From the NCBI GenBank assembly GCA_905178155.1, contig CAJINV010000005.1, positions 3,292,833 through 3,356,832 on the forward strand: a stretch of 64,000 nt of DNA, read 5' to 3'. A program made the position numbers and the translations under genes. Source of the stretch: Amoebophrya sp. A120 (lineage: Eukaryota > Protista > Dinoflagellata). The notes below the pieces were generated by a model. That model did no database searches. It had not been told where the DNA came from and saw nothing but the letters and a program-made list of their open reading frames with translations. Shown in pieces: positions 13,101 through 62,700 of this stretch (position 1 is the first letter of the stretch; each line of letters starts with the position of its first letter).

Positions 13101-16032
13101 TTTGGAAATAAACCCGAACAGCAAGAACACAGTGCCCCATGAGGAAAGCAGTAAAATCATTGGTCCTTCAACAAGAACAACTACCGGTAGTTCTTGTAGT
13201 TCCAACTCAAAAAAGCAAAAACCTTCTTCCGCATCGAAATTATCGAAGAAACAGAAGCAAAACGTGGTCCTGACGAAGCAATCCGACCACTACACACAGC
13301 AAGAGCAATCCACCTTCGACGATAAACTGCAGCACTTGCTGGACATATGAGAGTTGTGCACAAATCCTCCTTTCCCTCCTGTGTCATGCAAGCTCGTCTA
13401 TGTTGATCCAGTTCCATGACAAATTTTTTCGGAATAAGCTCAAAGTAGAGTAAGTACTACTCTCGGCCGCGAACTATGGAGGAAGTGCCACACACAGGCT
13501 CCTCGTCCTCTACTTCTACGTGTGCTGCTGTCTGTATAATTGCTGTTCATCGACCCATACGAATGAATCTACGAGGGGAACAAGGGGGAGTTGCGCCTGT
13601 TCATAGGACAACGAAGTGCCGTCTCCTACCAGCGCCCAGGAGATGGAGCAGGTCCGGTACCAGCAGAAGCGGTCTTTGAAGCAGTTTTTCCACGAAAACA
13701 TCCAGTCCAAGCGACTGCAGTTGTCGAAGACGTTGCAGCAGCGGGCTTTGCAAACGCCGTCGTTTCTTCTCTACTCCAACGCGGATCTGGCGGGGATGTG
13801 CGAAACGATGAATTCCATGGATGTGCAGGGGAGCCACATCGATCCGGAATACTTTGCCGCGGAGTCGATGTAACTAATATAGGGCTGCTTGACAAGAACT
13901 TTTGATATTCATTGTGTCCATCACGATCGATGCATGAGCACGCCCAGGAAAGAACTACTCGCTGCATATGATACAACGTCAGTTCCGCTTCCGTCGAGAA
14001 CTTTTACTTGCAATACGTAGTTGCGATACGTAGAAGTGGAGGCGCTTTTCAGTTAATCGAATGGGGATGGTACTTCTATGTACTAAAGTAGGCGATTTCT
14101 ATCTACTCGAAAATAAATCGTTTATCGCAGGCTCGTCCAGCCCCAGCACCGGTTCACACTGGTCGACTGGCTCACCGAGGTGACGCGGGCATTCAATCAC
14201 GCGACCGTCACGCTTGAGCTCGCGGTCAACATTTTGGACAGCTACTGCACGAAGGAAGAAAAGCAGATCCAGTTGCGGTTCTACCAGTTGATTGGCGCGG
14301 TCTGCCTCTTCATCGCGACTAAGGCGACGGAGGTGGTGCCGTTGCAACTGGACGAACTGGTGAAACTGTGCGACGCGCAATACTATCCTGTGCAAAAATA
14401 ATGATATCGCACTCGTGCAAATAGTCGCAGTCGTCGTGCATGACAGATTAGTATTGCTTTCCCTAGTACAACCTCCTAAGTGGTCTGCATCTTTCTTAAT
14501 ATCTGAGTTGCGTTTTTTCTCCTTGAAAAAAATAATTTTTCAGCCAATTTCTAGTACAGGTACGACAGCGGTATCGTTCTTTTGCAATGCATAAATGTCA
14601 GGAGAAGGACTTTTTACAAAAAGAAGTGGATATCGTCAACTGCTTGGAGTTCGAGCTATTCCGCGAACCTTCGGTGACCGAGTACGGTGGTATGTGGATC
14701 GCACTGTGGGTGGGCAAGGTGCTGCGTGGGGAGGGGCACAGGAAGGAGCACGGGAATAGCAAATCGCTGGCGACGAGCAACAAGGATAACTGTTTATCGA
14801 CCAAAAAGCCGTCACGGGTGAGCCCGAATACGGATTGGAACAGATACAACACCCTGTCGACAAGAACGCCGACTTCGTCTAGAGCGGCCGCTGGATTCAA
14901 CTCCACCTCGGGAATCAAGGCGACGAACTCCGCTGCCAGGATTTGCGCAACGTCGTCTGCAGCCTCTGGTAGTAAGATGCCCAGTTGTCACCAGAGGGAC
15001 CAGATGAACAATCCGCATAATTTCTCCCACGAATCTTTGAAGCGGAAGGCGGCCAGCGGCTCGACGTACTCCGGTTCTTCGCCAACATCTTCATCATCTT
15101 CCAGTCATCCGTCGTCCAATAATTCATCTTCCGGGAAGAAAAATAAATGCTACTACTATACCGATCAAAACGGGAACAAAATTGACTACCTCGTGGCACC
15201 TCGTCCCTCTGAGGATCAAGAATTGTCAAATGTTTTGTTTCCGACGTTGTCGACGAAGACAATGCGGATGTTTGAGTGCGACAACTTGATCCTGGACCCC
15301 TGGTGGATGTTTCACGCGCGGGACCAGAAGGGCTTGCTCTTCACGTTCTTCTCCTTTTTTGTCGAGTTGCAGCTGCACAACACGGACTTTCTCGTCTTCA
15401 CTCCGAAGAAACGGGCCGCGTCGGCGCTGTACTGTGCGTTGTGCCTGCTGCTGCCCGCCGAGAAGGAACGACGAGAACTGATTGTGATGGAGTGTTGTAG
15501 GAATAGCGCCGTAGGTTCTAGTGGCCGGAACAAGAAGAAAAACCCGCCGCGGAAAAGTCCCCTGACGTCGTGGCAAGACGAGTCGTCGTGCAGGATTGGT
15601 ATCCGTAATATGATTGCATTAGATGGCATGAGTGCTTCAACAAAATCCGGGCGACGTCCGCGACTTAGCGGGGCTGACGCTCATGTCCGTTTCAGTACTT
15701 AGTCTTGAATAGAAAACTGCAAGCCATGGCGAATTCAGTACCTAAACCTATAGATTCGTGCAAAAACAAACAAAACCAAAATCCGATGAATTCCAGATCC
15801 GATCCGCCTGGAGAAACTGCGGCGGGAACAAATCGCGACCTTGGATTCGCTACCGAAGTGGCCGTTGGAATTGATCCAGATCTCGGGTTTCTGGGCCATC
15901 GAGCTGCGAGAAGAGGTCTTGCAGCTGCGGTTGGCGTTTGAGCGGCACTTCAGCCGGCTTCGGGGGCAGGGCCTGATGAAGCGGTGGGAACCCCGGTGTG
16001 GAAAGTATTTGAAAGCGACAAACATTTTCTGA
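7170..16032 (+). CDS. Giant mitotic-type (A/B-like) cyclin, about 2317 aa, with N-terminal destruction box
   Basis: Exons 7170-7264, 7552-10752, 11009-12068, 12496-13345, 13611-13869, 14131-14383, 14599-15598 and 15797-16032 (6954 nt, one frame). N-terminal RRGLRDISN fits the D-box. Cyclin box reads HRFTLVDWLTEV...TLELAVNILDSY...YQLIGAVCLFIATKATE...QKEVDIVNCLEFEL. Five introners and two GT-AG introns. Confidence 0.75.
7265..7546. mobile_element. Introner
   Basis: TATGGAATTCTCAGGCGTTTTTA...TAAGAACGTTTGAGCACTCCATA with flanks TCGGA/GTGGA. Removing 287 nt joins the D-box exon to the 7547 ORF. Confidence 0.85.
10753..11003. mobile_element. Introner, family A
   Basis: About 31-bp near-perfect IRs TATCAAATGTAAAAGTGTCTGGGTCTGGAAG with flanks CTGCA/GTGCA. 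Removing 256 nt restores the frame. Confidence 0.95.
12069..12490. mobile_element. Introner with probable nested insertion
   Basis: TATGCACTGTAAAAGCT...AGCTTTTGCAATGTATA with exact DR TCTGC. Removing 427 nt restores the frame. Confidence 0.9.
13346..13605. mobile_element. Introner (family of 53304)
   Basis: TATGAGAGTTGTGCAC...GTTCATA with exact DR GGACA. Removing 265 nt restores the frame. Confidence 0.9.
14384..14593. mobile_element. Introner, family E, inside the cyclin box
   Basis: TATCCTGTGCAAAA...TTTTGCAATGCATA with flanks AATAC/AATGT. Removal gives CDAQY-QEKDFLQKE. Confidence 0.85.
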
Positions 16033-16570
16033 AAATGTTGTACTACGGTAGAACTGGCTCCACTAAACTACTTAAAACTTTCACGACTTGTAAGATGGAG
16101 GAGATGAGTTGGAAAAGGAACACACAACTCGAATTCGGTTGCAGCCATGAAAGAAAATCTATTACTAATTCTAGATGATGATGATCTGTTGAGCTAGTAT
16201 TTATTGATCGGCTGCACTTTCAGTTTCTACTCAGCAATTTAAATTTTGGTTTGGAGCTGACGTCACATTCGTGGCGCGGGTCATGGCTTCCAAGTTTATT
16301 TGTTTCACAATTTTGGCCGAGAACTTTTTTCCCTTTCAAAAGTATATGTCAAACAGTTTCTACATTTTACCTCGCGTTTCAATGTTTTCTTCTACTAGAT
16401 TACACCCTGTTTACCGTTATTTGTCTTCGCAAGACGAAAAATGCGAATATAGACGGACCATGATCTAGGTTTCTTTCGGAACGGGACTGAAACCTAAATA
16501 CACCGGGCGGGAGGCTGAACACGGCGTCGCAACCCACCGCGAAATGCGAGCTAGGCCTTTCGCTTTACTA

Positions 16571-16632
16571 TTCGCACGTTCCTAGAACCAAGTCCTAGAA
16601 ATAGTTTTTCGCACGTTCCTAGAACCAAGTCC
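16571..16632. repeat. Short direct repeat, 2 x 25 bp
   Basis: TTCGCACGTTCCTAGAACCAAGTCC occurs twice, intergenic. Confidence 0.8.
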
Positions 16633-17925
16633 AACTTGTACTCGGCTGTCTTCAGCACCTATGTTTCTACTCTTTGTTGGTTCCTATGCGAGAATGGAAA
16701 CTTTCGTGTCTTTCTTGACCTCGAGAGCTGCTTTGTCCGTTTGCCACTTCTTCCTGTTCGAGGAAGTTCTCTGATAGAAGTAGAACTAAGTTTTGACATC
16801 AGTGATGAGCTATTAATTTACTTAGGCTTTTTCCACCGTTTTTGCTATGCTTTATGAAAATGAAAATGAATCTAGCATCACTTGTACTCCTTCTAGGGGA
16901 AGTCAAGACAGATGAAGTGCGACTGCGTTGTCAAAGTTAGTAGCCACGAGGCGAGTTTGTTTTTAGTACTACGCGTCGCTGCCGGTGTGGACGGTCATTT
17001 CTGAGAACTAGGAAGTCTTTCACCATAGTACTCTTCTCGCTTTTGCTGTGTGCAAAAATAGAACTTAAACTGTATGATTTTTCAGGGAACTCTGTTTGAT
17101 TTTCATCTATCTACCTAGAACTTTCTTCACACAGTCACTCGACTCGACAAGCTACTTGATGTGTCCAATGCAATTACACAATATTGTAGTCTATTATGTC
17201 ACAACTCTGTACGCCGATACCGATAGCGAATTGCTTTTAGTGACATCAATGAATTTGAATTTGATTTTGCTTTGAACTTTTTGCAACACTCTACCTCCGT
17301 CTGTGTCTTGATGAAGAACTTGATCGGGAGCGGTCCTTCCTTCCGATGAAGGATATCTCCAGGCTTTTCTACGACGACCTTTCAAATGACAACGAACTGA
17401 TATATGAAGGGTTTGAGCTTTTCTTTTTGTTATTTCGGACGAATGAGTTGCAAAAAAATATCTGAGGCGGTTTCTCCGTCTTGTGAGCATGACGCGAATA
17501 TGGTCGTGGGCCGCGTTCGTTCCAGTATCCTAATGAGACCTACTATTGCGGAATTTGTCCGCCGCGAGCAAGCTGCACCACTTTTAACGGAGAGATGGAG
17601 AAAAACTGTGAAGGTGTTGCTGTTGCCCAGCGATGATATGCAGCCATCTACTCAGAGCTGCTTCCTTGTTTCGTAAGATGAAAGTAGGGCGATACTTCTT
17701 TGGCGGTAGCACTAGACAGAGTGCATCTTTTTTTCAACCCAGATGAGACGAGATCTCCGGGGAGCGACAGAAGCAGAGCGACACGAGTAGAGAGTTTCAG
17801 GTTTTACTGCTATGAGACGAGTATGTAACTACTTATACTTAATGCCAAAGTTTACTTCGACATCGATTTTTTTCGCTCTGGTTGTAGCCAAGAAAAAAGC
17901 GACAATATCCAGAGACACCTCCAAG

Positions 17926-19364
17926 ATGCTGGGCCATTTTGCACGAAGAACTGGGGCAGCTGCCCGCACTACGACAAGCTCCGCTCTCCGGAATCCGGTA
18001 CAGGCAGTGGCCTGCAGAGGGTACAACTATGTTTGGATTAGGGACGGTGTTTCTATATGCATTTTTAGTTCCAAGGAAGAACAACGACAACTGAGGATGC
18101 GCAGTGTCATGCGAATGAACGAAAGCAAAGCAAATCCTTCGAGAGCGAGAGTGAATTTGCGTTCTTGCGGTTGCGTGTGTCCAAACAGGTTCGCCATGAG
18201 CAAGCCAGAGGTGACGAAAAAGCTGCAAAACTACCACGACCAGCTCCTCGGCACCAACTGGGGGGATTACCTGGAATTGGTGGCAATTGCATTTTTTTTG
18301 TCTGAATTATTACATGCGCTCTTGGCATGTCCATGTTGACAACGTCAGAGACAAACAAGATCCGAGATGCAGACTTTGCAAGACAAATCGCCGAGAGAAC
18401 TACAGCCTCCACAAATACTTCTACAGGTACACAACGAGCCTTTTCTGTCAGCGGAGCTGGAAAGCATAGCAGACGAGATGGGGCCCTATATGAAGGACAC
18501 AGAGCTGGGACCAAAATACCAGTATGCATTACAGGCTACGGACTGTATGTATGCGTATAGTTTACTTCAAATTTTTTTTTTGTTTTCTGATTTTTTCTTC
18601 CCCGTTTGCTTTACTTTGATGCTGAGTGGTTCTTGCTTCCAACAAAAGAACTTGTGATGTAGTGGTGCTGCATCGCAGCCGGCTCTCAAAAAGAAGTATG
18701 TAAAAGCAGATGACATTCTAGCGCTTCTAGTTCTACCTGATTTACTCACTACCAGCTGTGAAGACGTCCGCGATCACCTGAACGAAATTTTGGAACTGAT
18801 GACGCGAAAAACCGGGGTGCTGGGCATGGGTATCAACGCCGGGGAGCCGGTCGAGAACTTGACGGAGCAGGCCGAGATGCTGAATAACGAGTACGAAAAG
18901 CTCCTGAAGCAGTACCCGGACTTCAAGCCAAAGGTCGAGCAGTCGGTCGGGCATGGCCTTTATGCAGAGTGCAAAAGAAAGTGATAGTAAACCGGATTTT
19001 TAGGTTTTGGATTGTTTGTCTTCGCGTTCTTCCGCGTCCAAAACGTATCTTCGCATGTGTTTGTTGTATCTACTTTTGAAGCGCGCCGCGCGCGCCGCGT
19101 TGTCATTTGGCTTTTCTTGGAACATCATGTAGAGTTAAACCTGTAGACCTCAATGGAAAGTAAATAACTGTAGAAGAAGTGGACGTTGTCATGCGATAAA
19201 AATACATGCGATCGAGATCGACATCGATGTCGATGCTCACCTCCCGGGGGGCAAATCGAAGCAACGGTAAAAGATTTATTGCTACTTTTGCACGGCATAT
19301 CTTGGCGATTTTGCGCATGAAGCACAAATTCGCGTTCTCGAGCGGCCATCGGTTCTTCTACTGA
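17926..19364 (+). CDS. Probable mitochondrial protein of unknown function
   Basis: Arg/Ala/Thr-rich presequence-like start MLGHFARRTGAAARTTTSSALRN. GT-AG introns 18021-18188, 18280-18426 and 18555-18755 plus introner 18961-19299(+5) give a continuous frame ending KPKVEQSVGHGLAILRMKHKFAFSSGHRFFY*. Confidence 0.7.
18961..19299. mobile_element. Introner, degenerate
   Basis: TATGCAGAGTGCAAAAG...CTTTTGCACGGCATA with flanks GCCTT/TCTTG. The +5 removal gives GHGL-AILRMKHKF. Confidence 0.8.
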
Positions 19365-20128
19365 GCGCGGACTCGTCCGGTGGAAAACAGAAAAGGATCG
19401 TCGGACTTATCGCCCGGGAAGGATGCAAGACAAAGACTTTTTACAACCATCTCAACAGTTCACTGTAGTCCTAGTCCTAGTCGTAGTCTCTTTGTTTTCA
19501 CTTTTCTCAGCAAGGAGGTCCTCGCTACTTATACAGCTCAGTGAAGATGACATAGCCTCAGGAAGTAGTGACATGATCATTACTCGGGAACAAGGCAGCA
19601 AACCAGTAGACGCAGCTGGTTTATTGGCTGGTGACCCACGGATGCTTGCCAAGAAACCTCACGCACTGCAGCTCCGGAAACGAATGTCACAGCGACGCTT
19701 GTGGTCTAATAGTAATATCTCAACGAGGATTGAACTAGTGCCCTTTCTTGTGGGGGCGAAAGCAATGGCAGAAGTGCGAACAAGAGGAGATGAAACGCGA
19801 AGAAACACATTTTTGGTCACCAAACGAATGCCGTGGGGCGGTTTATTTTCGCCAGGCTGCTACTTGTACTTTCTTAGTTACATGATCTCGCTTATGCCGA
19901 ATGAAATGAACTAAAAAATTCTGTTTACAGTGGGGGGCTCAATGCAAAATTAGGGATAGACTAAGAAAAAGGTTGATACGCTCTTCAGTCGATTCGCTAG
20001 AGGTTCATTTTTCTGTGTCGGAAAGTCGGAGGCTGAAAGCGTTTTTCAGCTGATGCTTCATCTTCTACCACTCGTGCCATCGTCGCTCCTGCTGTCGCTC
20101 TTTCATTGTGTGCTGCTTTCGTTAATAG

Positions 20129-21387: not shown

Positions 21388-21715
21388 GTTCGTCGTTGCT
21401 CTCTTGCATCGCTCGCACAAGAATATTTGAATAAGTTTCGTAATCGCTCTGTCTACTTCGAATCAAATTGTTTGTGTATCACTTCTCATTTTGATTTTTT
21501 CCTCGTTCTTTCGGATAGATGATAGAAAGTCAATTCCTCTTTTGCTCTTAGAAGTCGCGACCGAAAGCGTTTTCTGGTGCTTAACTTGCTTGTTTTTCTA
21601 GTCAGATGTGGCCGCCGTTACTGTAGATGTAAGAACAAGTGATTGTGATCATAAACAGCATCAGCTACATACCGGTCTGCTCTGCTTTTTTCCCTTTCCT
21701 AAAGCACTTAAAAGG

Positions 21716-33485: not shown

Positions 33486-36330
33486 ATGATTTTGGACCGA
33501 TACAACGAGCCAAGCCGTAGCAAAATGAGCATCTCTGAGGTGGAGGAGGAGTGCCCCCTCGTCGGGCACACTAGTAACGGGAACGAAGTACGAGTGGAAG
33601 TGGAAAAATCGGTCATGGCAGAAGATGTCGCGGGACCGTCGGAACTAGATAATGCCGGAGCTGCAACAGGGTCGTCGGGCTCGGAGGCGTCAGCAACAGC
33701 AACGGCATCAACTTCATCTGCAGCTTCATGCCTCCTGAGGTGGAGCCCCTCGCTGATTATCACTATCCTGTCGATCCTGGTTGGCGTTCTTGCGGTGCTG
33801 TTGGTGTCTTTTGCGGTAATGTGGGGCCAAGAGCGAACCGAAGTCGAGACTTTGCATGCAGAAAAAGCCGAGCTCTTGGAGTGGATAAGCAAGAACCCGG
33901 TAGTACCCTGTGTAAAAACGTTCCCACCCTAGATTTGTCATGCAGACCTGCATGCTTGAAATGTTTTCCATGCGGAGACCCATGAGAAGCTTTTTCTAGT
34001 TGTGTTTTGAGATTTGTGACGCTCAAATCTGCACGATAAACTAGATCTGTGATGCTGCTGCACTAGCTAAACACGACTACATCACGGGCCCAAATTTGTC
34101 ATGTACAACGGCCAAAGCTTGGTGATTTTTGTACTTCTTAGCAGATTTCCCATCTTGACTATGGGGTGGGGACGTTTTTACATAGGATAGGTAAATGTTA
34201 CTCCGCGCGACCACGACGACCCTACGGCTTCTTCTAGTCCTCGTCACGATAATCGTATGCAACGAAAAAAGTGTGACTGTTAAATTTATATTCAATACAC
34301 ATTGTCGTGTTGCAAGGCCAAGCAAGAAGACAGACAGCTCCGCGGTCGTCAACATGCCGGAAGATTATATTACGCTCAGGAGTGGAGCCTAGCTTCATAT
34401 GGGTTTATTTCCCTATATCATCTCGGCATTGCAAGTTTTCTCTGTTGCTAAACTCGCAACAAATGTGTAACTACTGTATTGTAACACTTTTTTCTTGGGA
34501 TAGATTCTGTTCCTGCGCCGTCGAACGGACTTATTCCGTTTTTTGGACCAGGTCGAAGTGCAGGTGGTCCCCCTGCGCCTGCTCCGGCGACCGTGGCTAA
34601 TATGAATCTGCAGAACCTAGGCCCGCGAGCGCGACACCAGCAGCCACCCGCTGGGCGCGTCCCGAACAACAGCGTGCATTGTCTAAACCCAAACTTTCAC
34701 AACTCAGCCTCCGGCGACGATGGCAGTGGCGGGAGCGGGTCAGGCGATGGAAGTGGTGGCGGCTCTGGCGACAGTAGTGACGCAGCATCCGTGGCCCCGC
34801 AACCAAAGACCGTGCCTTGGCCTTGGCCGCCGTCTGTACAGGCCGGCACGAACATGCAAGGCCCGGCTTGGGGCGAAACTTTTGGTGGGGTTCCCTTCTC
34901 CGGCCACATTCCCTACGACGTACCGAAGCACATGGTAGAGCCCTTCAAAGCCGACGAGGGCCCGATGAACAAGAAGCGGGTTGCCATCTGTCTTACGGGC
35001 GGGCTGCGGTCCTTCATCTTGCCGAATGTGTACAAGAGTCTTGGGGATAACCTGATTCAAAGTCTGACAGAAGCGCGGATTGCGGCCGGCGATGCGGATG
35101 CGAAGGTCGACGTTTTCTTCATCGGGTCGCTCACCCCCGCCGCCGGAAACGGGAACTCCCAGGTCCTCCTCTCCCAAGCCGACGCTCCGTCGACAGAGGA
35201 CGACCCCCGCGTGCAGGCAGGCTTGGACTATTTGAAGTCCAAGCTGCGACCCCAGGAGTTCGCGAAGAAGCGAGTTGTGCGGGATAGCACCTGTGCGGAG
35301 CTGGCGAAAGTACTGCACGACCAGGGCCGGCTTCCGCGAAACGCGGATGGTTCGCTTCCCGAGCTACCGGACACACTCTGCAACGGTCGGTCCTACATTG
35401 GCGGACCGGCGGGCAACGGGGCATTTTTCATGCAGGTAATGTGGATCGACGCATGTTTTGAGGATGTGAAGCAGTACGCGGCGAGCCACAACCTCACCTA
35501 CGACCTGGTGGTGCGCGCGCGACCGGATCTTGGGTTCCTAGAGCCGTTAGACTGGCAGGTATGCGGAGAAAAAAATGATACACCAGCAGTTGCGCGTTTG
35601 ATTTTGTAAGAACCTCAGCGACAGCACCACAACCATAATATTCTCTGCGTGAGGACAGAGAAAAACTTGCAATTCAGAGATGATGCTAACAAGTACTTCT
35701 CACGGGAAATAAAAAAAACGGAAAAGACGTATGAGACGAGGCACCTGCTGCTGACGCTTAGCATATCACGCATGTCGACGAAGCTTGTCTGTATTCTTGC
35801 TTGATCTGCAACACATTTTTAATGTCGTGTAAGTGCAACGCTTTTTTTTCTTTGCATAGCAAGGCACCGGAACCGACTACCCGCTCGCCCGGGATTACTT
35901 GACCCACCCGGCCCGCTCTCCGCGCCACACTCATGCGATGCGGGGGTGGGACTATTTTTGGACCATGCCCTTCAACCTGCTGCAGCAATATCAGGCCGGC
36001 GTAACGGGTTGGTATACGAAAAGAGACCCCGCGACCGGTTTGTCTTTGTGGTCGGATAACCAGAACGGGAAGCTTCCACATCCGGACGCCAATATGTTTA
36101 TCTACTTTGCCACCGTGTCGGTGAAGCGGCAGCTTCCGATGGTGCTCGTCCGGAGTGCGAGTGTCTGGCACAGGGACAGCCTCACTGGGTACCAAGACAA
36201 TCACTATCGCGGACCTGTCTTCGCGCGCCTCCTACAAAAAGCAGAGCAAGCAGCGGCGGCAGCTTGGTGGGGCAGTAGCACGAACGCGCTGCCACCCTGG
36301 CAGCTTATGGGACAAGGACAATCTGCATAG
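33486..36330 (+). CDS. Type II membrane putative glycosyltransferase-like protein, copy 1
   Basis: Exons 33486-33903, 34195-34254, 34504-35558 and 35860-36330. TM helix LIITILSILVGVLAVLLVSFAVMW and a stem region. Motifs KRVAICLTGGLRSF, DVFF and YDLVVRARPD resemble an algal/viral putative glycosyltransferase family (function inferred). Confidence 0.65.
33904..34189. mobile_element. Introner, family D
   Basis: TACCCTGTGTAAAAACGT...ACGTTTTTACATAGGATA with flanks GGTAG/GGTAA. Removing 291 nt is in frame. Confidence 0.9.
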
Positions 36331-36594
36331 AGGATATGGGCGACAATATGGATATGGTGGCGAGACACCATGACCGTAATTAAGGTTGTGGTCTGCTTTC
36401 TCGGTCGAAGTACAATTTGCAACGTTTTTTTGAGTCCATTTTTTTTTAGTTCGCTAGAAGAGCAGTGGCTCGTCGGTCCGGCGAGCGATGGTTTGTTGTT
36501 TCGACTCGCATTCTTGGACCCAATCTGCGAATAAAAAAAGCAAACTGGGGCCACGCATCTCTATCATGAGTGCTAATTTTTTTTTTTCCATGTT

Positions 36595-38833: not shown

Positions 38834-39581
38834 TATACTGCCCTGCTTCACACTCCTATGTCGCTCCGAGAATGCCTCCTGCCGTAAAAATTGCATCTTC
38901 TTGAAATAAAGCTAAGCCAAGCCCAAGAAGCCAACCCTGATTGTTGTAACAGAAAAAATGCATTGTTAAAGCCAAAAACAAAATCCAGGATTGATCCTAT
39001 GAAAAAAGTGCAAAAATATATATACCAGCACGACGATCTAGCAGGCTCAAACAGAATGAAGCACGACGCGCCATGTTGCGTGGAGCAACTCACTCCTGCG
39101 CAAAGTTCTGAAAATTCTGAAGAAAGTTGTAATGTTGCTCAACAAGAAACAAATTGAAATTACTAGATCGATCAGCAGAAATCGATAGGTCACCAGGATC
39201 TTTGTGTACCAGATGATCTAGTTGTCTGTTCTCCTGCTTTCGGCGCACGGTCTATAATTTTAGAAGTTCAAGTTTCCTGTTCTTATTCGCACATTGTATC
39301 GCAAGAAACAACGACTTCGCGGTTCTTTCACAAATCGAATTTGCCCATAAATTGATGCAGTGACCACCTGACAACATTAGTACGCAAAGGATTTGATCGC
39401 TTCTATTTTTCGCGATTTTTGCTTCATCTCTTCGCGATTTCTGCGTGCGCCTTAAGTCTTACCTTGCTCCTGTGTAATTTGTATGCTTATTTTCGTCATT
39501 TTTTTTGGATGTGTATGATAAGTTAAAGAAGAATCAATCACATTCTTCTATTGTTCATTTTTCCGTGGGAGATTTCCTTTT

Positions 39582-42390
39582 ATGATTTTGGATCGATACA
39601 CCGAGCCAACCCGTAGCAAAATGAGCATCTCTGAGGTGGAGGAGGAGTGCCTCCTCGTCGGGCACACTAGTAACGGGAAAGAAGTACGAGCGGAAGTGGA
39701 AAAAACGGCACTGGCAGAAGATGTCGCGGGACCATCGGAAGTAGATAATGCCGGAGCTGCAACAGGGTCGTCGGGCTCGGAGGCGTCAGCAACAGCAACG
39801 GCATCAACTTCATCTGCTTCATGCCTCCTGAGGTGGAGCCCCTCGCTGATTATCACTATCCTGTCGATCCTGGTCGGCATTTTTGCGGTCCTGGTTGTGT
39901 CTTTTGCGGTAATGTGGGGCCAAGAGCGAACCGAAGTCGAGACTTTGCATGCAGAAAAAGCCGAGCTCTTGGAGAGGATAAGCAAGAGCCCGGTAGTATC
40001 CTGTGTAAAAACTTTCCCACCCCAAATTTGTCATGCAGACCTGCATGCTTGAAATGTTTTCCATGCGGAGACCCATGAGAAGCTTTTTCTAGTTGTGTTT
40101 TGAGATTTGTGATGCTCAAATCAGCACGACAAACTGGATCTGTGCTGCTGCTGCACTAGCTAAACACGACTACATCACGGGCCCAAATTTGTCATGTACA
40201 ACGGCCAAAGCTTGGTGATTTGTGTACTTAGCAGATTTCCCATCTTGGCTATGGGCGGGTGGGGACGTTTTTACATAGGATAGGTACGCGTTACTCCGCG
40301 CGACCACGACGACCCTATGGCTTCTTCTAGTCCTCGTCACGATAATCGTATGCAAAGAAAAAAGTAAAGTGTTACTGTTACATTTATATTTGAATACACA
40401 TTGTGTTGCGCAAGGCCAAGCAAGCAGACAGCTCCGTGGTCATGCCGGAAGATTATATTACGCTCAGGAGTGGAGCCTAGCTTCATATGGGTTTATTTCC
40501 CAATATCATCTCGTCATTCTTTTTCTTGCAAGTTTTCTATTGTTGCTGAACTTGTTGCAAGAACAAATGTGTATGTAACTGTACATATAACACCTTTTTC
40601 TTGGGATAGATTCTGTTCCTGCGCCGTCTGATGGACTTCCTCCGGTTGTTGGACCAGATCGAAGTGCAGGTGGTCCCCCTGCGGCTGCGCTTGCTCCGGC
40701 GACCGTGGCCAATATGAATCAGCAGAACCTAGGCCCGCGAGCGCAACACCAACAGCCACCCGACAACGCGCATTGTCTAAACCCAAACTTTCATTCAGCC
40801 TCCGGCAACGATGGCAGTGGCGGGGGCGGCTCCGTGGCTCCGCAACCAAAGACCGTGCCTTGGCCTTGGCCGCCGTCTGTACAGGCCGGCACGAACATGC
40901 AAGGCCCGGCTTGGGGCGAAACATTTGGTGGGGTTCCCTTCTCCGGCCACATTCCCTACGACGTACCGAAACACATGGTAGAGCCCTTCAAAGCCGACGA
41001 GGGCCCGATGAACAAGAAGCGGGTTGCCACCTGTCTTACGGGCGGGCTGCGGTCCTTCATCTTGCCGAATGTGTACAAGAGTCTTGGGGATAAGCTGATT
41101 GGCAGTCTGACGGAAGCGCGGATTGCGGCCGGCGATGCGGATGCGAAGGTTGACGTTTTTTTCATCGGGTCGCTCACTCCCGCGGCCGGAAACCATCTCT
41201 CCCAGGTCCTCCTCTCCCAAGCCGACGCTCCGTCGACAGAGGACGACCCCCGCGTGCAGGCAGGCTTGGACTACTTGAAGTCCAAGCTGCGACCCAAGGA
41301 GTTCGCGAAGCAGCGATTTGTGCGGGATAGCAACTGTGCGGAGCTAGCGAAAGTACTGCACGACCAGGGCCGGCTCCCGAGAAACGCGGACGGTTCGCTT
41401 CCCGAGCTACCGGACACACTCTGCAATGGTCGGTCCTGGATTGGCCAACCTGCGGGCAACGGGGCGTTTTTCATGCAGGCAATGTGGATCGACGCATGTT
41501 TTGAGGATGTGAAGCAGTACGCGGCGAGCCACAACCTCACCTACGACCTGGTGGTGCGCGCGCGACCGGATCTTGGGTTCCTGGAGCCGTTAGACTGGCA
41601 GGTATGCTGAGAAGAAACTGACACGCCAGCAGTTGCGCGTTTTTTGTAAGTAAAGAACTTCAGCGACCACACAATTATAATAGCTATGGACTCTCTGCGT
41701 CTGCGTGACAGAGAAAGCCAAATCCTGCAATTCAGAGATGATACGTAAGAAGTGCTTACGGATATATAGAAAACCGAAAACATAAACATGAACATCACGT
41801 ATGAAGCGAGTCCCCTGCTGCTGAGCATATCACGCATGTCGACGGAGCTTGTCTGTAGTCTAGCTTGATCTGCAACACGTGATATATCGCGTGTCAGTGC
41901 AACGTTTTTTTTCTTTGCATAGCAGGGCACAGGAACCGACTACCCGCTCGCCCGGGATTACTTGACCCACCCGGCCCGCTCTCCCGACCCCAATTCGGTG
42001 CGGGGGTGGGACTATTTTTGGACCATGCCCTTCAGCCTGCTGCAGCAATATCAGGCCGGCGTAACGGGGTGGTATACGAAAAGGGAACCCGCGACTGGTT
42101 TGTCTTTGTGGTCGGATAACCAGAACGGGAAGCTTCCACATCCGGACAGGAATATGTTTCTCTACTTCGCCACCGTGTCGGTAAAGCGGCAGCTTCCAAT
42201 GGTGCTCGTCCGGAGTGCGAGTGTCTGGCACAGGGCCTGCCTCACTAGGTACCAACATAACCACTTTTTCGGACCGGTCTCCGCGCGCCTCCTACAAAAA
42301 GCAGAGCAAGCAGCGGCGGCAGCTTGGTGGGGCAGTAGTACGACCGCGCTGCCACCCTGGCAGGTTGTGGGACAAGGACAATCTGCATAA
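39582..42390 (+). CDS. Type II membrane putative glycosyltransferase-like protein, copy 2
   Basis: Near-identical paralogue of 33486-36330 with the same intron positions and the same introner (39997-40282). Confidence 0.65.
39997..40282. mobile_element. Introner, family D (paralogous to 33904)
   Basis: Same site in the duplicated gene, with flanks GGTAG/GGTAC. Confidence 0.9.
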
Positions 42391-55743: not shown

Positions 55744-58700
55744 ATGGTTTTCCTGCTGTCTGAAGAGGATTTCCACCGGCTTTCGAAGCCGATGGAAAAA
55801 CGGGTGCGGTACCTGGAAGAGCAGGTCACACTCCTGACCAAGGCGCTCCACGACGCAAACCTGGTCGAGATTGGCTCGCCGAACGCGTGCGGAGTGGACT
55901 TGGAATTCATGGAGGAAAATGGATCATGTGCTGGGCTGCAGGACACCGACATGATATTAAGCGGCCATCAAGAGATGAACCACGAGCACAAAAAGATGCG
56001 GGCTACGGGTCGTGAAGTAGATGATATAGAAGTTTCCTCTTCTTCTTGTCGGAATATTACTTCTTTTACCGGAAAAATACAGAGGTGTGACACGACGACA
56101 ACGCACACGACAGATATCAAGAACACCAAGAAAGCGGTCAAAGAGCAAGATGTAGTCAAAAACCCATTTGAAGAGGACATTGCGAATTTCAAACTCGACG
56201 ACCTCGAAATAGAAATCGACGACGACGCAGAGGACGGGTTGGCGCTCAAGCCGCATCCCGCAACCGAGCTTCCCCTGGGAGGTGGAGACGCGATGAACAA
56301 AAATAACGATAAAAAACAAAAACCTGCGAACACTTCTAGAAATGCGGCGCTTCATCTGCCGGATCAGCAGAAACAAAACGAGGCCGAGGCGAAGCGCGAG
56401 CAAATATATAACCCTGACTCACCGGGGTTCACTCTCAACGAGCTAGACGGGATAGAGGACCTCAACACACGCCTGCAGCAGGAAGTGGAATATCCAGTGC
56501 AACAAATATGATGTCTGGGAGGTCCGCCTCTGGAACATAATTCCAACTTGTGATGCGGAGTTGTCAGGAGACGAGGAGGAGGACAAAAAAGATGTCCATG
56601 TTCGATTCAGACTAGGCATGGAAATAAAGCCTCCGCGGAATATGCAATGCTTTGTGTGCATTGCAATGCTGGGTTTTTTATAGGGTGCAAAAAGGGCGTG
56701 ACAAATATGTTTTCTTCGGGAGGACCCAGACATGTTTGATATGGAATCAGGAGGAAGCAAATTGGGGGCGGAAGAACTCGCGAGTGGGGCAGCAGGGGTA
56801 CAGTCTTTTACTTTAATGTATCAGTCTGGTTCTTCTTCTTTCTTCTTCTTGATAGTCGATGTTGGAGTAGCTGTCAGACTTTCTGTGCCGCTGCTTGAAA
56901 AAATTTATTTGTTCTATGCCACACACAGCCTGCCCGTCGGCGAGACGAGCATGGTGGGGGCAGCTCTTTGAGCACTTCTAAACAGGAAACAAACAAAACG
57001 GACGAGGGAAGCAATAAGTTGTCCTTCTTACCGTTTTTGAGCAAGACGTCCACAACAAGTGGTATGCTCCCTGGTACCGGCGTGTCCTCGTCCTCTTCCT
57101 CTTCTTCTTCATCCCGCGCGGGCCTCGTCAATAAAGGTGAAAATAAAGTCGACCTTCAGACCAGATCCTTCCAAAACAAAACCGCCAATATTAGAGAGAA
57201 CATCAAAACGAGCAGTGCCAGCCGCCGGGATGTTGAGCAAGATCGTGGTCCTAGCGCTATCAAAAGTACGAGGGGGCGTCAGGAAGAAAAGGAAGCAACT
57301 GCTTTGAAGGTGGAGCGAAGTTCTGGTGGTGGCGCTGCTGTAATTTCCATGCGGGAAGGCGGTTTACCGAGCCAAAGAGTGCTGCTGCCCAATTCATCAT
57401 CATCATCCCGAGGCTTAGCTGCTCGGCGGTCCCGGTCTGCGAGACGGCCTCTGCGGTCCCGTGAACGGACGGGCGGGACGAATTACCCGCCAGAGAGCAG
57501 TTCTAGTAGAACGACCAGGAGCAGAAGACCGGCGGCCCCACCAGTGGGTGTGAGCAGGTACGCAGATCACCTGTCCGAGCCGCGCAACAAACACAGAAGT
57601 CGGGAGGACCGCGAGCGGCGAAGACATTCGCCGATCTCCTCCCGGCTCCTGGCGGCGGAAGAAAGAAACAAACTGGTCGAGCTGCCCCACATGCGGACCC
57701 AGCGACCCATCTCCGAACGGGTTTTGGAAGCCGAGGAAAAAAACAATCGGAAAAACGTACGACCTGCTCAGAATTAAATGATACAATCCCAAACGGCATA
57801 GTTATAGACTCTTCCTTGATTTGAAGATTATTGTTTTTCATGAACTTGCGCTTTACTATACAAAGTTCGTGAGGCGGGTATTTATTTTGGCCGCTCCAGA
57901 ACTTGATGTCCTGCGTATACTTCCTGTCGTGATAAGAGGAACGAGAGGCTGCCAGATCGTGCCTTTTGCTTTTTGCATAGATTTAGATAGGCTTGCGTTT
58001 TATTTGTCGTCACCTTTGAGGTTGTATTTGTCACTACACCTGAGCAGGTCATAAAACGTGGTGAGCTCTATTTCGGCGAGAATTCAGCTGGAGGAGGGAC
58101 ATCAACCACGGACTTCTACTATGAACTGCAAAAGTAGCGCACTAGTATAAATTGCATTACAAATCGGCTCAGCATTACAAATTAAATTTGTAATGCTGAT
58201 TTCCCTGAACACCTAGATTTGTAATGCATAACTGCAATTAGTACGAGTACGATACTTTTGCACAGGATATCTACTTCTCGTGTCGACCGCAGGAGGTCGA
58301 GAAGTGCTTTGCGTTCTACTACACGAACACGAGCAGCTTCTGCTGCGGAAAGGAACGAACACGAAGCACAACGCTCTGCGTTGTTCAACACCAAAAATCC
58401 GCGGCGGTTTTCCCTCGAGAGCAGGAAAGACAAAGAGACACCCAAAACTCCTTCGAAGTCGAACAGTGAACAAGTTTTACAGGTGGTGGAGGCCACAGGC
58501 AACATAGGCATCATATGAACTGCAAAAATGTCTGGGTCTGGAAGAGTTGGAACTTGTCATGCGAATTCATTCTGGAATAGGCAAAAATTTATATTGCATA
58601 AGCACCAAGAGCTTCCCATTTATTGCCACGCAAATAGGGAATTTCTCATGCGGGATAGACATCAGGAGGCCTGCGCAAAACCTGTAATGCTTTTGCGTGC

Positions 58701-58966
58701 ATTAGAGACCAGTGAGTTGCGTGATCGAGAAGATGCATGACAAACTCCTGCAATCTTCCAGACCCAGACATTTTTGCATTTGATACATCAAGTTTGAAGG
58801 CGAAAAAAAGCAGGACAAGAAGGAGGATACCAGACCACCGTACTCGATCTTCAGTAGCGGACACAACAAGGGCGGGCCCACTAACAAGGGGAATTATAAA
58901 CCACCTGCCAAAGTCGTAACGGTGCTACCACCACCGTTTATCCCGACGAAAAACAAGGAAAGGTAG
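55744..58966 (+). CDS. Hypothetical low-complexity (S/R-rich) protein
   Basis: Exons 55744-56490, 56747-56796, 56986-57756, 58088-58119, 58275-58513 and 58791-58966 are in frame after removing three introners and two GT-AG introns. Confidence 0.55.
56491..56741. mobile_element. Introner, family A-like, degenerate
   Basis: TATC..ATGTCTGGG / CCCAGACATGTTTGATA with exact DR TGGAA. Confidence 0.88.
58120..58269. mobile_element. Introner, family E (150 bp, smallest complete copy here)
   Basis: Interior homologous to 54020, with exact DR TCTAC. Confidence 0.92.
58514..58785. mobile_element. Introner, family A
   Basis: Family A IRs with exact DR CATCA. Confidence 0.93.
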
Positions 58967-59725
58967 GAGCGAGTGGTTGTATGCATATGCCACCGCATCA
59001 TGCGCTCATTTCTCTTTAGTAGTCTACTTCGAGCAATGAGAATGACATCAAACAACAATAATTCGGAGGTAGCACATTTCTTTATTACTTCTGCACCCAG
59101 ATGATAGAGTTAGAGTTAGAGATAGAAGCTAGCTCTGTAAAAAGCAGCCTCACTCTGGTGGAGATGGTCCTCAACATGGACGCCGGTCGTCCTCGCGCAC
59201 CATTTCTCCAGCTAGTTCTTGGGTTCCACTCCTTAGAAAAAACTCAACGCGTCAAAAATAAAGCCAATGAGTCAGAGTCGAGCGTGTGAAAGTTTGTGCG
59301 TTAATGACTGCGCTTCGCTTTTATCATGCGGTAGCGTAGTTTGAGGTTGTGGATAAGTTCTTGAGAGAAGCTTGGAGATTTGAAAATCGGGCCTTAGAAG
59401 CTTCTTGTTTCGCTCTTCTCGTGTCGGAAAGTTTAATATTTCTCGTAGAAGATGATACAGTCTGTCTCTGTCCCTCGTGCATCTCAATCATCAAGAAATT
59501 AAGCGTCGGCATTTTCACTTTGATCCTAGTATAGATGGAATTTGTTCCTTGCTTGTCAACATCTAGTGTTTTTTCTACCCCAGCGTCCTTGTTGTTTTTC
59601 TCTTGTCCAACATCGTCGTGAGGACAAGAGGTTCGCGTTCAAAAAAAGACATCATACATAAGTAGATTTTCAGCAGCAAGGAAAAATTCATCGAAATCTA
59701 AGATCGTGAAAGAACTTTAACAGCC

Positions 59726-62700
59726 ATGCCTACGGCAGCCTCAAGTTCTTCCACTAAATTTCTTCTGTCGACTACCAGCGGCGTGCAAAGCAGCAGTGCT
59801 AAAAACATGCCAGCTGCGGGTAAGATGAACAAGACTTCATCCTCCAAGGCCGCACCTCCAGCGGGGAACAAGAATATCAAGACGAAGAGCAGTAAAAAGC
59901 CCATGCTGTCTGTGAAGGAAATGCGGGAGATGAAGAAAAAGAAGATGGTGGTGCGGAAAACCACCGCAGCGGCAGCTATGAAGAAAAAACCCGCCGCCTC
60001 TGGTGCAACTGCTTGGTATTGCGGACGACGGAACAAGAACACCCAGACAAAACAAGGGGAAGCGAAATCGAACAAATCGTCGAAAGGAAAGACGAAAACA
60101 CATGCCAAAAAAGAAGCAACCGAGGAGGAAGAAGACGAAGAGGACGATTCTTCAGAAGACGACACAGACTCAGACGAAGACCCGCGGTTGAAGTGGCCCG
60201 CGCTGGAGTCGAACCCCGAGGCGTTCACGAGTTTCATGCACCGCGTGGGCGTCGCAAAGCAGTTATCGACTGCAAAAATGTCTGGGTCTGGAAGGATGTA
60301 ACATGTGATGCGCATTTCGGAACACACAAAAATTTCTCATGCAGAGGTAGCAAAAGCTGCTCACTTTCTGTCACCAAAGTGGGGGATTTGTCATGCGGGT
60401 TCGGCATTGCGGAAGCTTCTCGAAACCTGTGATGCTAGAGCTTCCATGCCAGAGCTTCTGCGTCATGCAGAAACAGCACGACTCTTCCAGACCCAGACAT
60501 TTCTACATTTGATAGCAGTGGCAGTTCCACGACGTTTTCGACTTGGACATGCTGGACCAGATTCCGGACGTCACCGCCCTGGTTTTGCTCTACCCGATCG
60601 TGGACGAAGAGGGCGAAGCACTCATGCCCACGGCGAACCGGAAACGTACTTTCTGTTTCTATAATTTCCGACAGAATAAAGAACTTTGTCATGCATGCCT
60701 GAGTCTAAGTAACCTGTGCCTGCTGTCTGTGCATGTTTAATAAGTAAGTAACTTGTGCGAATCCAAGTGATTCTATGACGCAATTTTTGACAGCATGAAT
60801 TTTTACACGTGCTGACGAGTGAGACAAGTGATTAAAAATAAACTAACAGCAACATGCCTATGCACAAATGCTCTTACTTTACAAACAGGAGTGAAATTGT
60901 CCGATGACGCCCCCTTCTTCATCTGGCAGGGCGAAGACCTCGGGAACGCGTGTGGTACCATTTCCATTATCCATGCGGTTGCGAATATGGGAGTGTCAGG
61001 ATCGAAATCGACAAAATCGAAAAGTTTGTAATGCGTAAAACGTAGGGCACATAAGGCCTGTGTTGGAGAGGAGGCAAATGAGACCGATTGCAAGCCTGTC
61101 TAGCCCCAAACATGTATTGCCAGAGTAGCATGACAGGCGCAGTCTTCTTTGCCCAAACAGCATGACAGGCTGGATTTTGATGCTCCCAAAATTTGTCATG
61201 CGGCGGTTGGAAACTGAGGCTCCAACTGGTATCGACTTTATGCGTCGCAAATTATTTCGATTTTGTTGATTTCGATCCTGACGCTTCCATAGCGAACTGC
61301 GAGCAAGTGGCGAAAACCGTCAAGAAAAAATCCGCGCTGAGCGAGTTCTTGGCGAAATGTAAAAAGATGACGCCTATCAAGTGCAAAAATGTCTGGGTCT
61401 GGAAGAATGCGAACCTGTTATGCGTGTTGCGGATCATACAAAAATCTGTGTTGCATGACTTGCAAAAGGTCTCCACTTCTGGCCATGCTGAGAGGGCATT
61501 CCTCATGCAGAATAGGCATCACCAAGGGACTGCAGAACGTGTGATGCTACTCCCTGCATTCCAGACTTGGCGGAGCTTGGAGAAACTGCATGACAAATCT
61601 CGGAATCTTCCAGACCCAGACATATTTGCAATCCATAACGCCCGAGGAACGCGGGAGTTTGCTCGACCAAGACGAAGCAATCATGGAGCACGTACTTTTT
61701 CGTGGTAGTTGTGGTCGTGAAGATCATTGTGATATCGATATGTTGTAGTTCCATGTTGTATGCAATACAACTGTCTACTTCGGCCTAGCTAAGAAGGTCT
61801 TGACGCACGAGACCGATTTGTATCGCAGCATTGCATCTTCAGCTGGCTTTTTTCTGATGCAGAAATAATACGGGAATCATGATACATGACCAAAAATACA
61901 TCTTCAGGTTGCCGAAGTCGCTTGCGATGCGGAGTTGAACCAGACCGATTGGTACAAGTTGGTTGAGGACGATGATGACGACGACGATGACGATGAGGAG
62001 GATATTCTGTTGAAAAACGTCCCCGCCCCTCAGACTCCAGATGTTGCTGTTGGGAACTCTGCAACCCAAATCCAGGTTTTTTAAGACTCAACACGCATGA
62101 CAATTCAAAGTCTCTGCTCGTACTATCTGTAGAGTAGTGCATCGCGCAACAAGTTCTCAGCAAGGGCAGCCGCAATTATACCTTGACATTAGAGCCATCT
62201 TCTTATTGTGTTTCCAGCATATCAAGTTCCAAAACGCGACTAGGGCGGATGTATCATGTTGCAAATGTTTCAGTAGATGCAAATCTGCCTGACACCAGCG
62301 CTAGTAGGGAGGTGGAGACGTTTTTACTTGGGATAGATGAAGACGAGGATGAAGATCCGGAGGTTGATTTAGACACCGACCACCACTTCATCACCTTCAT
62401 ATGCATCACAAAATTTGAATTTCGTGCTAGAAGTAATTGCCTAATTCGAATGATCCAATGATTTTTTGCTTAACCACACTAGCATGGAAAAGAAAAACTG
62501 AATAAATGAAAAAGAAAATTGCATGTGCTGTTTGATACCCCCTCCAATGATCGACATTTTCCATTTTGCACGAAGTACTATATTGCAATTGCCGCGAGTT
62601 GTGCGAAGATGTTTTTGCGCAGCATATCTCATCGAGAAAAACAACGTGATCTATGAATTGGACGGCCTCCGCAACATGCCACTTAAGGTCGGCACGACCA

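Follow-up and report, generated by a model that had tools for sequence, protein, structure and literature searches.

Introner elements in a 64,000-nt window of Amoebophrya sp. A120 (the window being the whole stretch of DNA analysed here) are removed from messages as the element plus 5 nt, and the cut probably falls between positions 4 and 5 of the flanking 5-nt direct repeat (DR), 1 nt before the first TA and 4 nt after the last TA. At DRs with unlike copies, the messages have the upstream letters at positions 1-4, and in both cases that are informative at position 5 (2/2) they have the downstream letter there. The elements are the published non-canonical introner introns of this organism, an intron class that is already known, and the evidence presented here, five informative introns of which one is clean at the decisive position, is a lead and not a result. 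It supports in part a sequence-only reading of the same DNA, in which the upstream DR copy was held to be exonic and the downstream copy intronic, and it refines a known system from few cases.

Architecture of the introner elements

The curated set of the window comprises 31 elements with TA...TA ends, 29 of them 150-422 nt long. Their termini are inverted ends of the form TAT+7 nt+AAA, flanked by a 5-nt duplication. Termini such as TATCCTGTGCAAAAA and TATCAAATGCAAAAA are found at both ends of elements, and some families of the window diverge after TAT (e.g. ...GTCAGG and ...GCTCAGG). The DR is perfect in 21 of the 31 elements and mismatched in the other 10. When TA..TA pairs with at least 12 of 16 complementary end positions were scanned, a perfect 5-nt DR was present in 19 of 214 pairs, against 0 of 385 in the reversed sequence used as control. 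A looser scan of the terminal inverted repeats (TIRs), allowing up to two DR mismatches, gave 81 hits against 115 in the control, and mismatched-DR elements were therefore admitted only if their termini matched those of perfect-DR families. In minimum free energy (MFE) folds, the ends were brought together in 25 of the 29 elements folded. The elements combine TIRs, a 5-nt target site duplication (TSD) and many copies with no transposase ORF, which are the features of MITEs, and the summed depth of DNA contigs is 10^4-10^5 in bins containing elements versus about 30 in their flanks.

The elements are inserted in coding exons, on the sense strand. Once the element plus 5 nt is taken out, 50 or more codons stay open on either side in 15 of the 31 cases on the + strand, versus 6 of 31 on the - strand. 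They carry stop codons and interrupt conserved cyclin and UCH domains, which only removal restores, and the annotated proteins P0002 and P0004 (both 'unnamed protein product [Amoebophrya sp. A120]') are 100% identical to exons of the window. The DR itself would be only a scar of transposition, and any pair of cuts spaced by the element plus 5 nt would restore the original frame.

Removal from the RNA

All introners named below lie on the + strand; outer coordinates, given after each element, include both DR copies. RNA contigs of run X1 contain five non-canonical joints, each skipping exactly the element plus 5 nt, and two GT-AG joints; the depths of the spliced contigs are 237-464. Two of the five introners have perfect DRs, namely 12069-12490 (12064..12495, TCTGC), joined from 12063 to 12491 with 427 nt skipped (422+5), and 13346-13605 (13341..13610, GGACA), joined from 13340 to 13606 with 265 nt skipped (260+5); five letters are shared at each of these joints. 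The other three have mismatched DRs. Introner 7265-7546 (7260..7551, TCGGA/GTGGA) is joined from 7261 to 7549 with 287 nt skipped (282+5), and introner 10753-11003 (10748..11008, CTGCA/GTGCA) from 10748 to 11005 with 256 nt skipped (251+5), each with four shared letters. The cyclin introner 14384-14593 (14379..14598), with AATAC (14379-14383) upstream and AATGT (14594-14598) downstream, is joined from 14382 to 14598 with 215 nt skipped (210+5) and no shared letter. A GT start is present in 0 of these 5 introns (7265, 10753, 12069, 13346 and 14384) in all registers that the joints allow.

Three further introners with perfect DRs (57758-58053, 58120-58269 and 58514-58785, within 57753..58790) are lost jointly as 301+155+277 nt, as calculated from one X1 contig. 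It carries 56928-57751 at record positions 75-898 and 58786-59115 at record positions 1200-1529, so that 1034 genome letters minus 301 record letters give 733 skipped, the sum of the three lengths each plus 5. Canonical introns with a GTA start occur in the same window at 13870 and 15598 (contigs), at 60646 and 61692 (mapping of P0002) and probably at 56798. Two raw RNA runs under the same species label are uninformative on expression: X8 gave 113 reads, all of them partial and placed at the repeat 10956-11003, and X9 gave one read.

Position of the cut within the direct repeat

The DR pairs quoted in the sequence-only reading for the cyclin, UCH, 33904 and 39997 introners are all present as it gave them. 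At mismatched DRs the message shows which copy is kept. The 7265 contig has the upstream TC at DR positions 1-2 and not GT, which allows a 5' cut behind any of positions 2-5 or one base inside the element. The 10753 contig has the upstream C at position 1 and not G, and a cut after any of positions 1-5 is allowed. At the cyclin intron, a cut after position 4 only is allowed. The spliced-out stretch is 14383-14597, with ends CT..TG, and the joint combines the upstream letter of position 4 with the downstream letter of position 5 in a TAT codon (Tyr), not TAC. The two flanking contig pieces have 0 other letters, and the row of the joint is marked 'between: not known'; it is this one clean case, from one RNA study, that fixes position 5. 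The Tyr is conserved, being aligned with a Tyr of cyclin A2; the expectation that the upstream copy would encode the expected residue is thus borne out for the amino acid, but the codon mixes both copies. Such a joint could also be mimicked by C-to-U conversion of the final exon base; no such change was seen in the exons of the contigs.

Two annotated proteins add to these contigs. P0004 maps to 1954-4461, one Lys, and 4774-6012, across introner 4464-4767 (4459..4772), whose DR copies are GGGAG (4459-4463) and GGAGA (4768-4772). The annotated junction joins 4462 to 4772, leaving 4463-4771 as the intron, and the Lys codon AAG is made of A4462, A4772 and G4773; the message keeps upstream positions 3-4, and again a cut after position 4 only is allowed. 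At the UCH introner 62400-62626 (62395..62631), with CTTCA (62395-62399) upstream and TCTCA (62627-62631) downstream, P0002 reads ...HHFITF/IEKNN across the joint (slash), and the Phe requires the upstream T of position 2, so that a cut after position 2 or later is allowed. This Phe had also been taken as the expected residue, a claim that did not hold: UCH-L3, the closest solved homologue, has Leu there ('hfialv' versus 'hfitfi'), and homology expresses no preference, though the annotated protein has Phe. The RNA joints of this intron and of 62003 are deduced from the ends of contig pieces, the list of joints being dominated by repeat-driven joints of the DNA run. In X1, X2 and X4, all RNA contigs over 62988-63999 begin 92 nt before the joint with that stretch, at 62629, the first letter that the unspliced form has in common with the form spliced with the upstream allele, and one unspliced X2 contig spans 62371-62658.

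A cut after position 4 is compatible with all five informative introns, which points to a single register, N-TA...TA-NNNN. The upstream copy is therefore exonic at positions 1-4, by contigs at 7265, 10753 and cyclin and by annotated proteins at 4464 and UCH, but at position 5 the exonic letter is the downstream one (cyclin and 4464). On the RNA contigs taken separately, the upstream allele appears in the message at 7265, 10753 and cyclin position 4, and the downstream allele at cyclin position 5. Since DRs with two or three mismatches in five are still removed as exactly the element plus 5 nt, identity of the repeat is dispensable, as the earlier reading proposed in arguing for spacing.

Other mismatched repeats and other ends

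Paralogous introners at 33904-34189 (33899..34194, GGTAG/GGTAA) and 39997-40282 (39992..40287, GGTAG/GGTAC), for which the genomic sequence is the evidence, had been cited for an intronic right copy. Their left copies are indeed identical and their right copies differ, but this difference opens an uninterrupted 3-nt change (AAT versus CGC) that runs into undisputed exon, and it is therefore no proof that the right copy is intronic. At 33904, 160 codons before the junction and 29 after it stay open when the element plus 5 nt is removed. The only match of the 33904 gene in a protein search was the annotated P0001, of 113 aa, which ends before the intron, and a search of protein representatives returned 0 matches to the exon of the second paralogue. 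Introner 35560-35858 (35555..35863), likewise known from its sequence, has GCAGG/GCAAG; since both DR copies of its paralogue at 41603-41921 read GCAGG, the letter that changed in 35560 is position 4 of the downstream copy.

Two introners in the 56-64 kb region suggest other 3' ends. At 56491-56741 (56486..56752, perfect DR TGGAA), one piece of an X4 contig runs to 56489, and 45 contig letters separate it from the next listed piece, which begins at 56928; the 5' cut would thus lie after DR position 4 (or 5) and the 3' cut about 10 nt after ATA. The ends of this element are unpaired in its MFE fold (0/16). At 62003-62335 (61998..62340, GAGGA/GATGA), the annotated intron (61971-62344) is 36 nt longer than the element plus 5 nt and lies within GA-rich repeats.

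These two ends belong to the case for an absence of any single register, in which the cut would wander within the repeat or vary by family, elements flanked by GT and AG being handled by the ordinary spliceosome. The 4464 intron reads GT..AG at its annotated junction, so the ordinary spliceosome could yield the same junction, which in any case is drawn from an annotated coding sequence and not from reads. Sites for such splicing are also offered by 33904 and 39997 (G/GTAG...ATAG/G) and by 35560 and 41603 (GCAG/GTATG), and DR/IR architecture is reported for 15% of A120 canonical introns in the available text of Farhat et al. (2021, PMC7789003). Contigs drop rare variants, moreover, and this could mask mixed registers. 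However, one position fits 5/5 informative introns from five different terminal-repeat families, the earlier in-frame AG at 4767-4768 is not the annotated acceptor at 4464, and none of the five contig-supported non-canonical joints can be placed on a GT start. We therefore regard a wandering or family-specific cut as unlikely, although it retains an appreciable chance.

The register proposed in the sequence-only reading, with the intron starting at TA and ending 5 nt after ATA, would make the intron the element plus the whole downstream DR, with all five upstream letters exonic. For 7265, 10753 and UCH it is as good a fit as a cut between positions 4 and 5, it gives Tyr in the cyclin, and upstream position 5 is G in both paralogues 33904 and 39997. 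It is contradicted by the cyclin contig, in which the joint from 14382 to 14598 has no shared letter and the message has T, not C, and by P0004, whose Lys would be an Arg in this register, and it is accordingly improbable.

An artefact of reverse transcriptase (RT) template switching or of assembly slippage, between short repeats joined by a hairpin, deserves mention since the RNA evidence consists of cDNA-based contigs from one study. Hairpins with flanking direct repeats are a classic setting for RT jumps. The cyclin joint, however, has no microhomology, mismatched repeats are still exactly removed, and the stops within the elements, the restoration of the cyclin and UCH domains and the depth of the spliced contigs all speak against it, in agreement with the earlier reading; this explanation is very improbable. 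Excision at the DNA level, which the TA...TA ends and precise removal would liken to the TA-bounded internal eliminated sequences of ciliates, is scarcely credible, because the contigs of DNA run X5 are unbroken through the elements (4400-10779 and 12349-20158) and contain none of the RNA joints.

Possible basis of the register

A cut between positions 4 and 5 would be set by the element termini, either a terminal hairpin or the TAT/ATA motifs, and not by the identity of the repeat. In MFE folds, 7/16 end positions are paired in the cyclin intron and 0/16 in the UCH intron, a poor pairing which weakens a reading in which the hairpin alone acts as ruler. In this register the introns would begin N-T-A, the same frame as the canonical GTA start of the organism. 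This shared frame, together with the lack of a U1 snRNA among those found in the A120 genome (Farhat et al. 2021, PMC7789003, in the text available), makes a spliceosome with no demand on the first base and no need of AG a plausible executor. A separate pathway of endonuclease plus ligase would be the alternative.

Relation to known systems

The available text of Farhat et al. (2021, BMC Biol, PMC7789003) describes the inverted repeats (IRs) of A120 introners as TAT followed by about 7 less conserved nt and then 3 or more A, and gives them DRs of 3-5 nt that overlap the exon/intron boundaries. It sets the IRs '1-5 nt' from the splice sites and finds no clear signature at the termini. The elements of the window resemble these introners in the IR motif, the 5-nt DRs, a length of about 240 nt, their mixture with canonical introns and a MITE-like structure without internal transposase. 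That text, in contrast, of which figures S19-S23 are represented by their legends, does not state N-TA...TA-NNNN as a constant register deduced from repeat mismatches, and a literature search yielded no paper in which the Amoebophrya cut register is stated.

Nonconventional introns of Euglena (Nomura et al. 2025, PNAS, PMC12501133; Milanowski et al. 2014/2016), as far as the accessible parts of these papers describe them, likewise have no GT-AG, complementary ends and TSD-like repeats. Their cuts lie 3 nt (5') and 5 (to 6) nt (3') from the paired motif (PMC12501133), whereas the offsets here are 1 and 4. The CAG...CTG that defines them at +4..+6 and -8..-6 is absent here, where the termini are TAT.../...ATA; with the cut between positions 4 and 5, the introns start N-TAT-(C/G)... 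and end ...ATA-NNNN, and the euglenid CDG/CHG pair is missing at the expected positions. Euglenid nonconventional introns are further characterised by excision as circular RNA without the spliceosome. The two lineages are unrelated, Amoebophrya being an alveolate and Euglena a euglenozoan, and because the N3-CDG signature is absent, Euglena and diplonemids were dismissed as sources of the DNA.

The introners of Micromonas, Aureococcus and Polarella (Huff 2016; Gozashti 2022/2025; Roy 2023) are also DNA transposons with TIR and TSD turned introns, and A120 is counted among introner-rich genomes (Gozashti et al. 2025). According to the portions of these sources available, their splice sites are GT/GC-AG and come in part from the TSD, whereas GT (or GC)...AG ends were not found at the five contig-supported introns of the window, the annotated 4464 junction being the exception. 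In the accessible text on Fritillaria borealis and hemistasiid diplonemids (Henriet 2019; Thakur et al. 2025, PMC12621601), abundant non-GT-AG introns of suspected MITE origin are also described, and in diplonemids base-pairing intron ends as well (PMC12621601). Diplonema papillatum is without such introns. The terminal motifs differ, being of the AG-AC type in Fritillaria and GC-rich in diplonemids, and that text (PMC12621601) describes no register relative to a 5-nt repeat.

Implications

More than 60% of Amoebophrya introns are removed without GT-AG ends. Repeat ambiguity can conceal a terminal signature, and mismatched repeats lift that ambiguity. A wider reading, which we put forward tentatively and with more doubt than confidence, extends one rule, N/TA...TA-NNNN/, to the tens of thousands of such introns in A120, and adds a U1-less spliceosome and convergence with Euglena. 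The cue would lie in the termini or hairpin of the element itself, whatever the terminal dinucleotides and the flanking repeat happen to be; the GTA-like 5' frame would indicate a spliceosome without U1 that inspects +2/+3 and nothing else; and the 1/4 offsets would echo the 3/5 ruler of Euglena, suggesting convergent, structure-measured splicing of MITE insertions. If this were true, the published 'unprecedented diversity of splice motifs' would largely be alignment ambiguity.

A fixed register, if confirmed genome-wide, would provide a concrete cis rule for mutagenesis and would correct gene models, where every mismatched intron otherwise leads to one wrong residue. The apparent RNA editing might be accounted for as well, namely that at 2-4% of intron boundaries, which the available text of PMC7789003 ascribes to possibly inaccurate boundaries. 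The frame shared with canonical GTA sites would bear on whether the mechanism is spliceosomal or non-spliceosomal, and the register would allow a direct comparison with the 3/5 spacer code of Euglena.

Terminal-TA elements in the window

Short elements that start and end with TA, each bordered by a 5-nt direct repeat (DR), are scattered through the window, in which nearly all genes lie on the + strand. Their complementary ends consist of TAT, about 7 variable nt and an A-run. In a scan for TA..TA pairs spaced by 60-1600 nt with at least 12 of 16 terminal bases complementary, a perfect 5-nt flanking repeat was found in 19 of 214 pairs, versus 0 of 385 in the reversed-sequence control. The DR is perfect in 21 and mismatched in 10 of the 31 curated elements, and 29 of the 31 measure 150-422 nt. 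Target preference is mild, the first DR base being G in 15-17 and the fifth A in 13-15 of the 31. A 5-nt duplication is characteristic of few transposon superfamilies, e.g. Transib. Two long elements (24519-25887, 1369 nt, and 46153-47597, 1445 nt) share these termini and each have a perfect 5-nt DR; neither contains a long open frame, and each may be a composite or nested copy. In run X8, which carries the same species label, raw RNA reads match only the element end 10956-11003 (95-99% identity) before continuing into unrelated sequence, and apparently come from a related introner family transcribed in another strain or sample.

Removal of the elements from RNA

Contigs of public runs were aligned to positions 4400-24399, the RNA evidence coming from contigs of one study and two samples; coverage of the locus was absent in two raw RNA runs. 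Run X1 is RNA-like: unexpressed stretches have no coverage, and the GT-AG introns 13869>14131 and 15597>15796 are skipped. It also skips five TA..TA elements, each by exactly the element length plus 5: 7261>7549 (287 nt), 10748>11005 (256 nt), 12063>12491 (427 nt), 13340>13606 (265 nt) and 14382>14598 (215 nt). None of the registers allowed by these five joints gives an intron start GT. The DNA-like run X5, with an even depth of about 30 and contigs continuous across 4400-10779 and 12349-20158, shows none of the five joints in the same region; removal therefore takes place at the RNA level. Further downstream, an X1 contig containing 57751 (piece 56928-57751) and 58786 (piece 58786-59115) has 301 letters for the intervening 1034 genome letters, and the 733 skipped letters equal the summed (length + 5) of the three elements located there. 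After removal of element + 5, at least 50 open codons are present on each side in 15 of 31 cases on the + strand, versus 6 of 31 on the - strand. Contigs are blind to minor splice forms. An X2 contig (62371-62658) is unspliced across the introner of the UCH gene (intron 62400), whose ends are unpaired in the minimum free energy (MFE) fold (0/16), and its removal may be inefficient.

Position of the cut within the direct repeat

The sequence-only reading had assigned the upstream DR copy to the exon and the downstream copy to the intron, which would run from TA to 5 nt past ATA. The pairs on which it drew were all found as written: AATAC/AATGT (14384-14593), CTTCA/TCTCA (62400-62626), GGTAG/GGTAA (33904-34189) and GGTAG/GGTAC (39997-40282). 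Mismatched repeats break the alignment ambiguity of a joint. At element 7265 (DR TCGGA/GTGGA), where the joint is possible after 7261 to 7265, the X1 contig keeps the upstream TC at positions 1-2, and at 10753 (CTGCA/GTGCA) it keeps the upstream C at position 1. The joint of the cyclin intron, 14382>14598, has no letter common to both sides and zero other letters in the flanking contig pieces; the 'between' entry of its table row reads 'not known', though frame and length are consistent. Since this joint is unambiguous, the message takes AATA from the upstream copy (positions 1-4) and then T from the downstream copy (position 5), which gives the codon TAT. The Tyr expected there is indeed conserved (cyclin A2 aligns Y with Y), but it is encoded by TAT and not by the upstream TAC.

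Two annotated A120 proteins, P0002 (UCH gene) and P0004, both named 'unnamed protein product [Amoebophrya sp. A120]' and 100% identical to window exons, provide further cases. P0004 maps to 1954-4461, one Lys and 4774-6012, across element 4464 with its three DR mismatches (GGGAG/GGAGA). This Lys (AAG) can be obtained only from A4462 + A4772 + G4773, i.e. upstream positions 1-4 and downstream position 5; an intron ending 5 nt past ATA would give Arg, and use of the closer acceptor AG (4767-4768) would result in Arg-Glu. At the UCH intron, the Phe of P0002 has the upstream T as position 2. All RNA contigs covering 62988-63999 in X1, X2 and X4 carry 92 letters before the joint to this piece and start at 62629, where the unspliced form and the upstream-allele spliced form begin to agree. 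With the downstream allele, this agreement would extend back to 62627, so that, judging from how such contigs break, the start at 62629 points to the upstream allele. Homology shows no preference for this allele, contrary to the idea of Phe as the expected residue, because the closest solved homologue has Leu ('hfialv').

A cut after DR position 4 fits all five informative introns, which come from five different terminal-repeat families. The intron thus likely starts 1 base before TA and ends 4 bases after ATA. For position 5, the evidence consists of one clean contig case (cyclin) and one annotated CDS (4464), and both contradict an end 5 nt past ATA. The earlier observation was real and its interpretation partly right, two of the three supports given for it being weaker than claimed: the upstream copy is retained at positions 1-4, but at position 5 the downstream letter is in the message.

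A tandem segmental duplication (33400-45700) has about 94-96% identity over its aligned part. At least two introners are present in both copies (33904/39997 and 35560/41603), so these insertions are older than the duplication, and the direction of repeat mutations can be read from such pairs; in 35560, downstream position 4 has changed relative to the perfect GCAGG of its paralogue. Between 34194-34196 and 40287-40289, AAT versus CGC is the sole contiguous 3-nt difference. It starts at downstream DR position 5 and extends into undisputed exon, the other differences in 439 aligned columns being isolated or indels. If position 5 is exonic, it would be exactly one codon (Asn versus Arg), which fits the cut after position 4 without proving it.

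Two boundaries depart from this pattern. Element 56491-56741 has a perfect DR (TGGAA) and a composite left end, and the MFE fold leaves its ends unpaired. One X4 contig piece stops at 56489 (after DR position 4); 45 contig letters separate it from the next listed piece, which begins at 56928. The best fit would be a cut on the 3' side about 10 nt past ATA, not 4, followed by a 45-nt exon and a GT-AG intron 56797-56927. The annotated intron at element 62003 (61971-62344) extends 36 nt (12 Asp/Glu codons) beyond element + 5 within GA-rich repeats, which may reflect slippage, use of an alternative site or a choice made in annotation.

Relation to known introns and possible mechanism

In Farhat et al. 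2021 (PMC7789003), A120 introner elements are described with inverted repeats (IRs) of TAT, seven less conserved nt and at least 3 A, with DRs of 3-5 nt; non-canonical introns measure about 240 nt, and 29,850 introns are repeated. The window elements belong to these, since all four tested defining features were found, and the system is therefore already known. They are neither standard GT-AG introners nor DNA-eliminated sequences. They resemble Euglena nonconventional introns in how they work without being members of that class: the defining CAG/CTG pair is missing, but fixed unequal spacers are used in a similar way (3 nt/5 nt there, PMC12501133, versus 1 nt/4 nt here). PMC7789003 places the IRs '1-5 nt' from splice sites and reports apparent editing (2-4%) at boundaries, which 'may not be accurately defined'; mis-assigned mismatched repeats would yield exactly such apparent editing. 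The cut register was not found in the accessible parts of the published sources, including PMC7789003, PMC12130899, PMC11282704 and PMC12005148, although figures S19-S23 of PMC7789003 might bear on it. The cut between positions 4 and 5 thus refines a known system, on thin evidence.

Element + 5 is removed from RNA, and the register stays the same across the informative cases whatever the repeat identity. The earlier proposal that spacing matters is supported, because DRs with 2/5 and 3/5 mismatches are still lost as exact element + 5. The lack of microhomology at the cyclin joint and the restored reading frames speak against homology slippage or reverse-transcriptase template switching. The register would be read from the element termini. 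In MFE folds of elements with 10 nt on each side, the two over 1.3 kb being excluded, 25 of 29 elements have 8 or more of their 16 initial nt base-paired to the mirrored 3' end, and TAT pairs exactly with ATA in 17. The cyclin and UCH introns pair poorly (7/16 and 0/16), and recognition of the TAT/ATA ends by sequence is therefore no less possible than a hairpin ruler.

With the cut after position 4, every introner intron begins N-T-A. The canonical introns seen in the window begin GTA: contigs show this for 13870 and 15598, mapping of P0002 shows it for 60646 and 61692, and it is inferred for 56798. The transposon terminal TA would thus correspond in position to +2/+3 at a normal 5' splice site. 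The preferred executor is a spliceosome that is relaxed at the first base and finds the 3' site by position, because of the frame common with GTA introns and because no U1 snRNA was found in A120 by Farhat et al. (PMC7789003). An endonuclease and a ligase, a route discussed for Euglena and diplonemids, may act instead.

A possible route from non-canonical to canonical introns

At its annotated junction the 4464 intron reads GT..AG, and an ordinary spliceosome could make the same product. With a cut after position 4, all three mismatches lie in the intronic copy and jointly create the GT and AG there, which would fit a non-canonical intron turned canonical in place. In this register, NNAG^G targets (caret, cut) yield GT..AG automatically, as in 35560/41603. 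Where the DR is NNAGG, originally or by drift (35555-35863, 41598-41926 and 4459-4772), the intron reads AG^GTATG...AG^G and looks canonical. This would turn non-canonical introns into canonical ones with the boundary unmoved. The DR/IR architecture is reported for 15% of A120 canonical introns (PMC7789003), and insertion at NNAG^G may explain this shared build.
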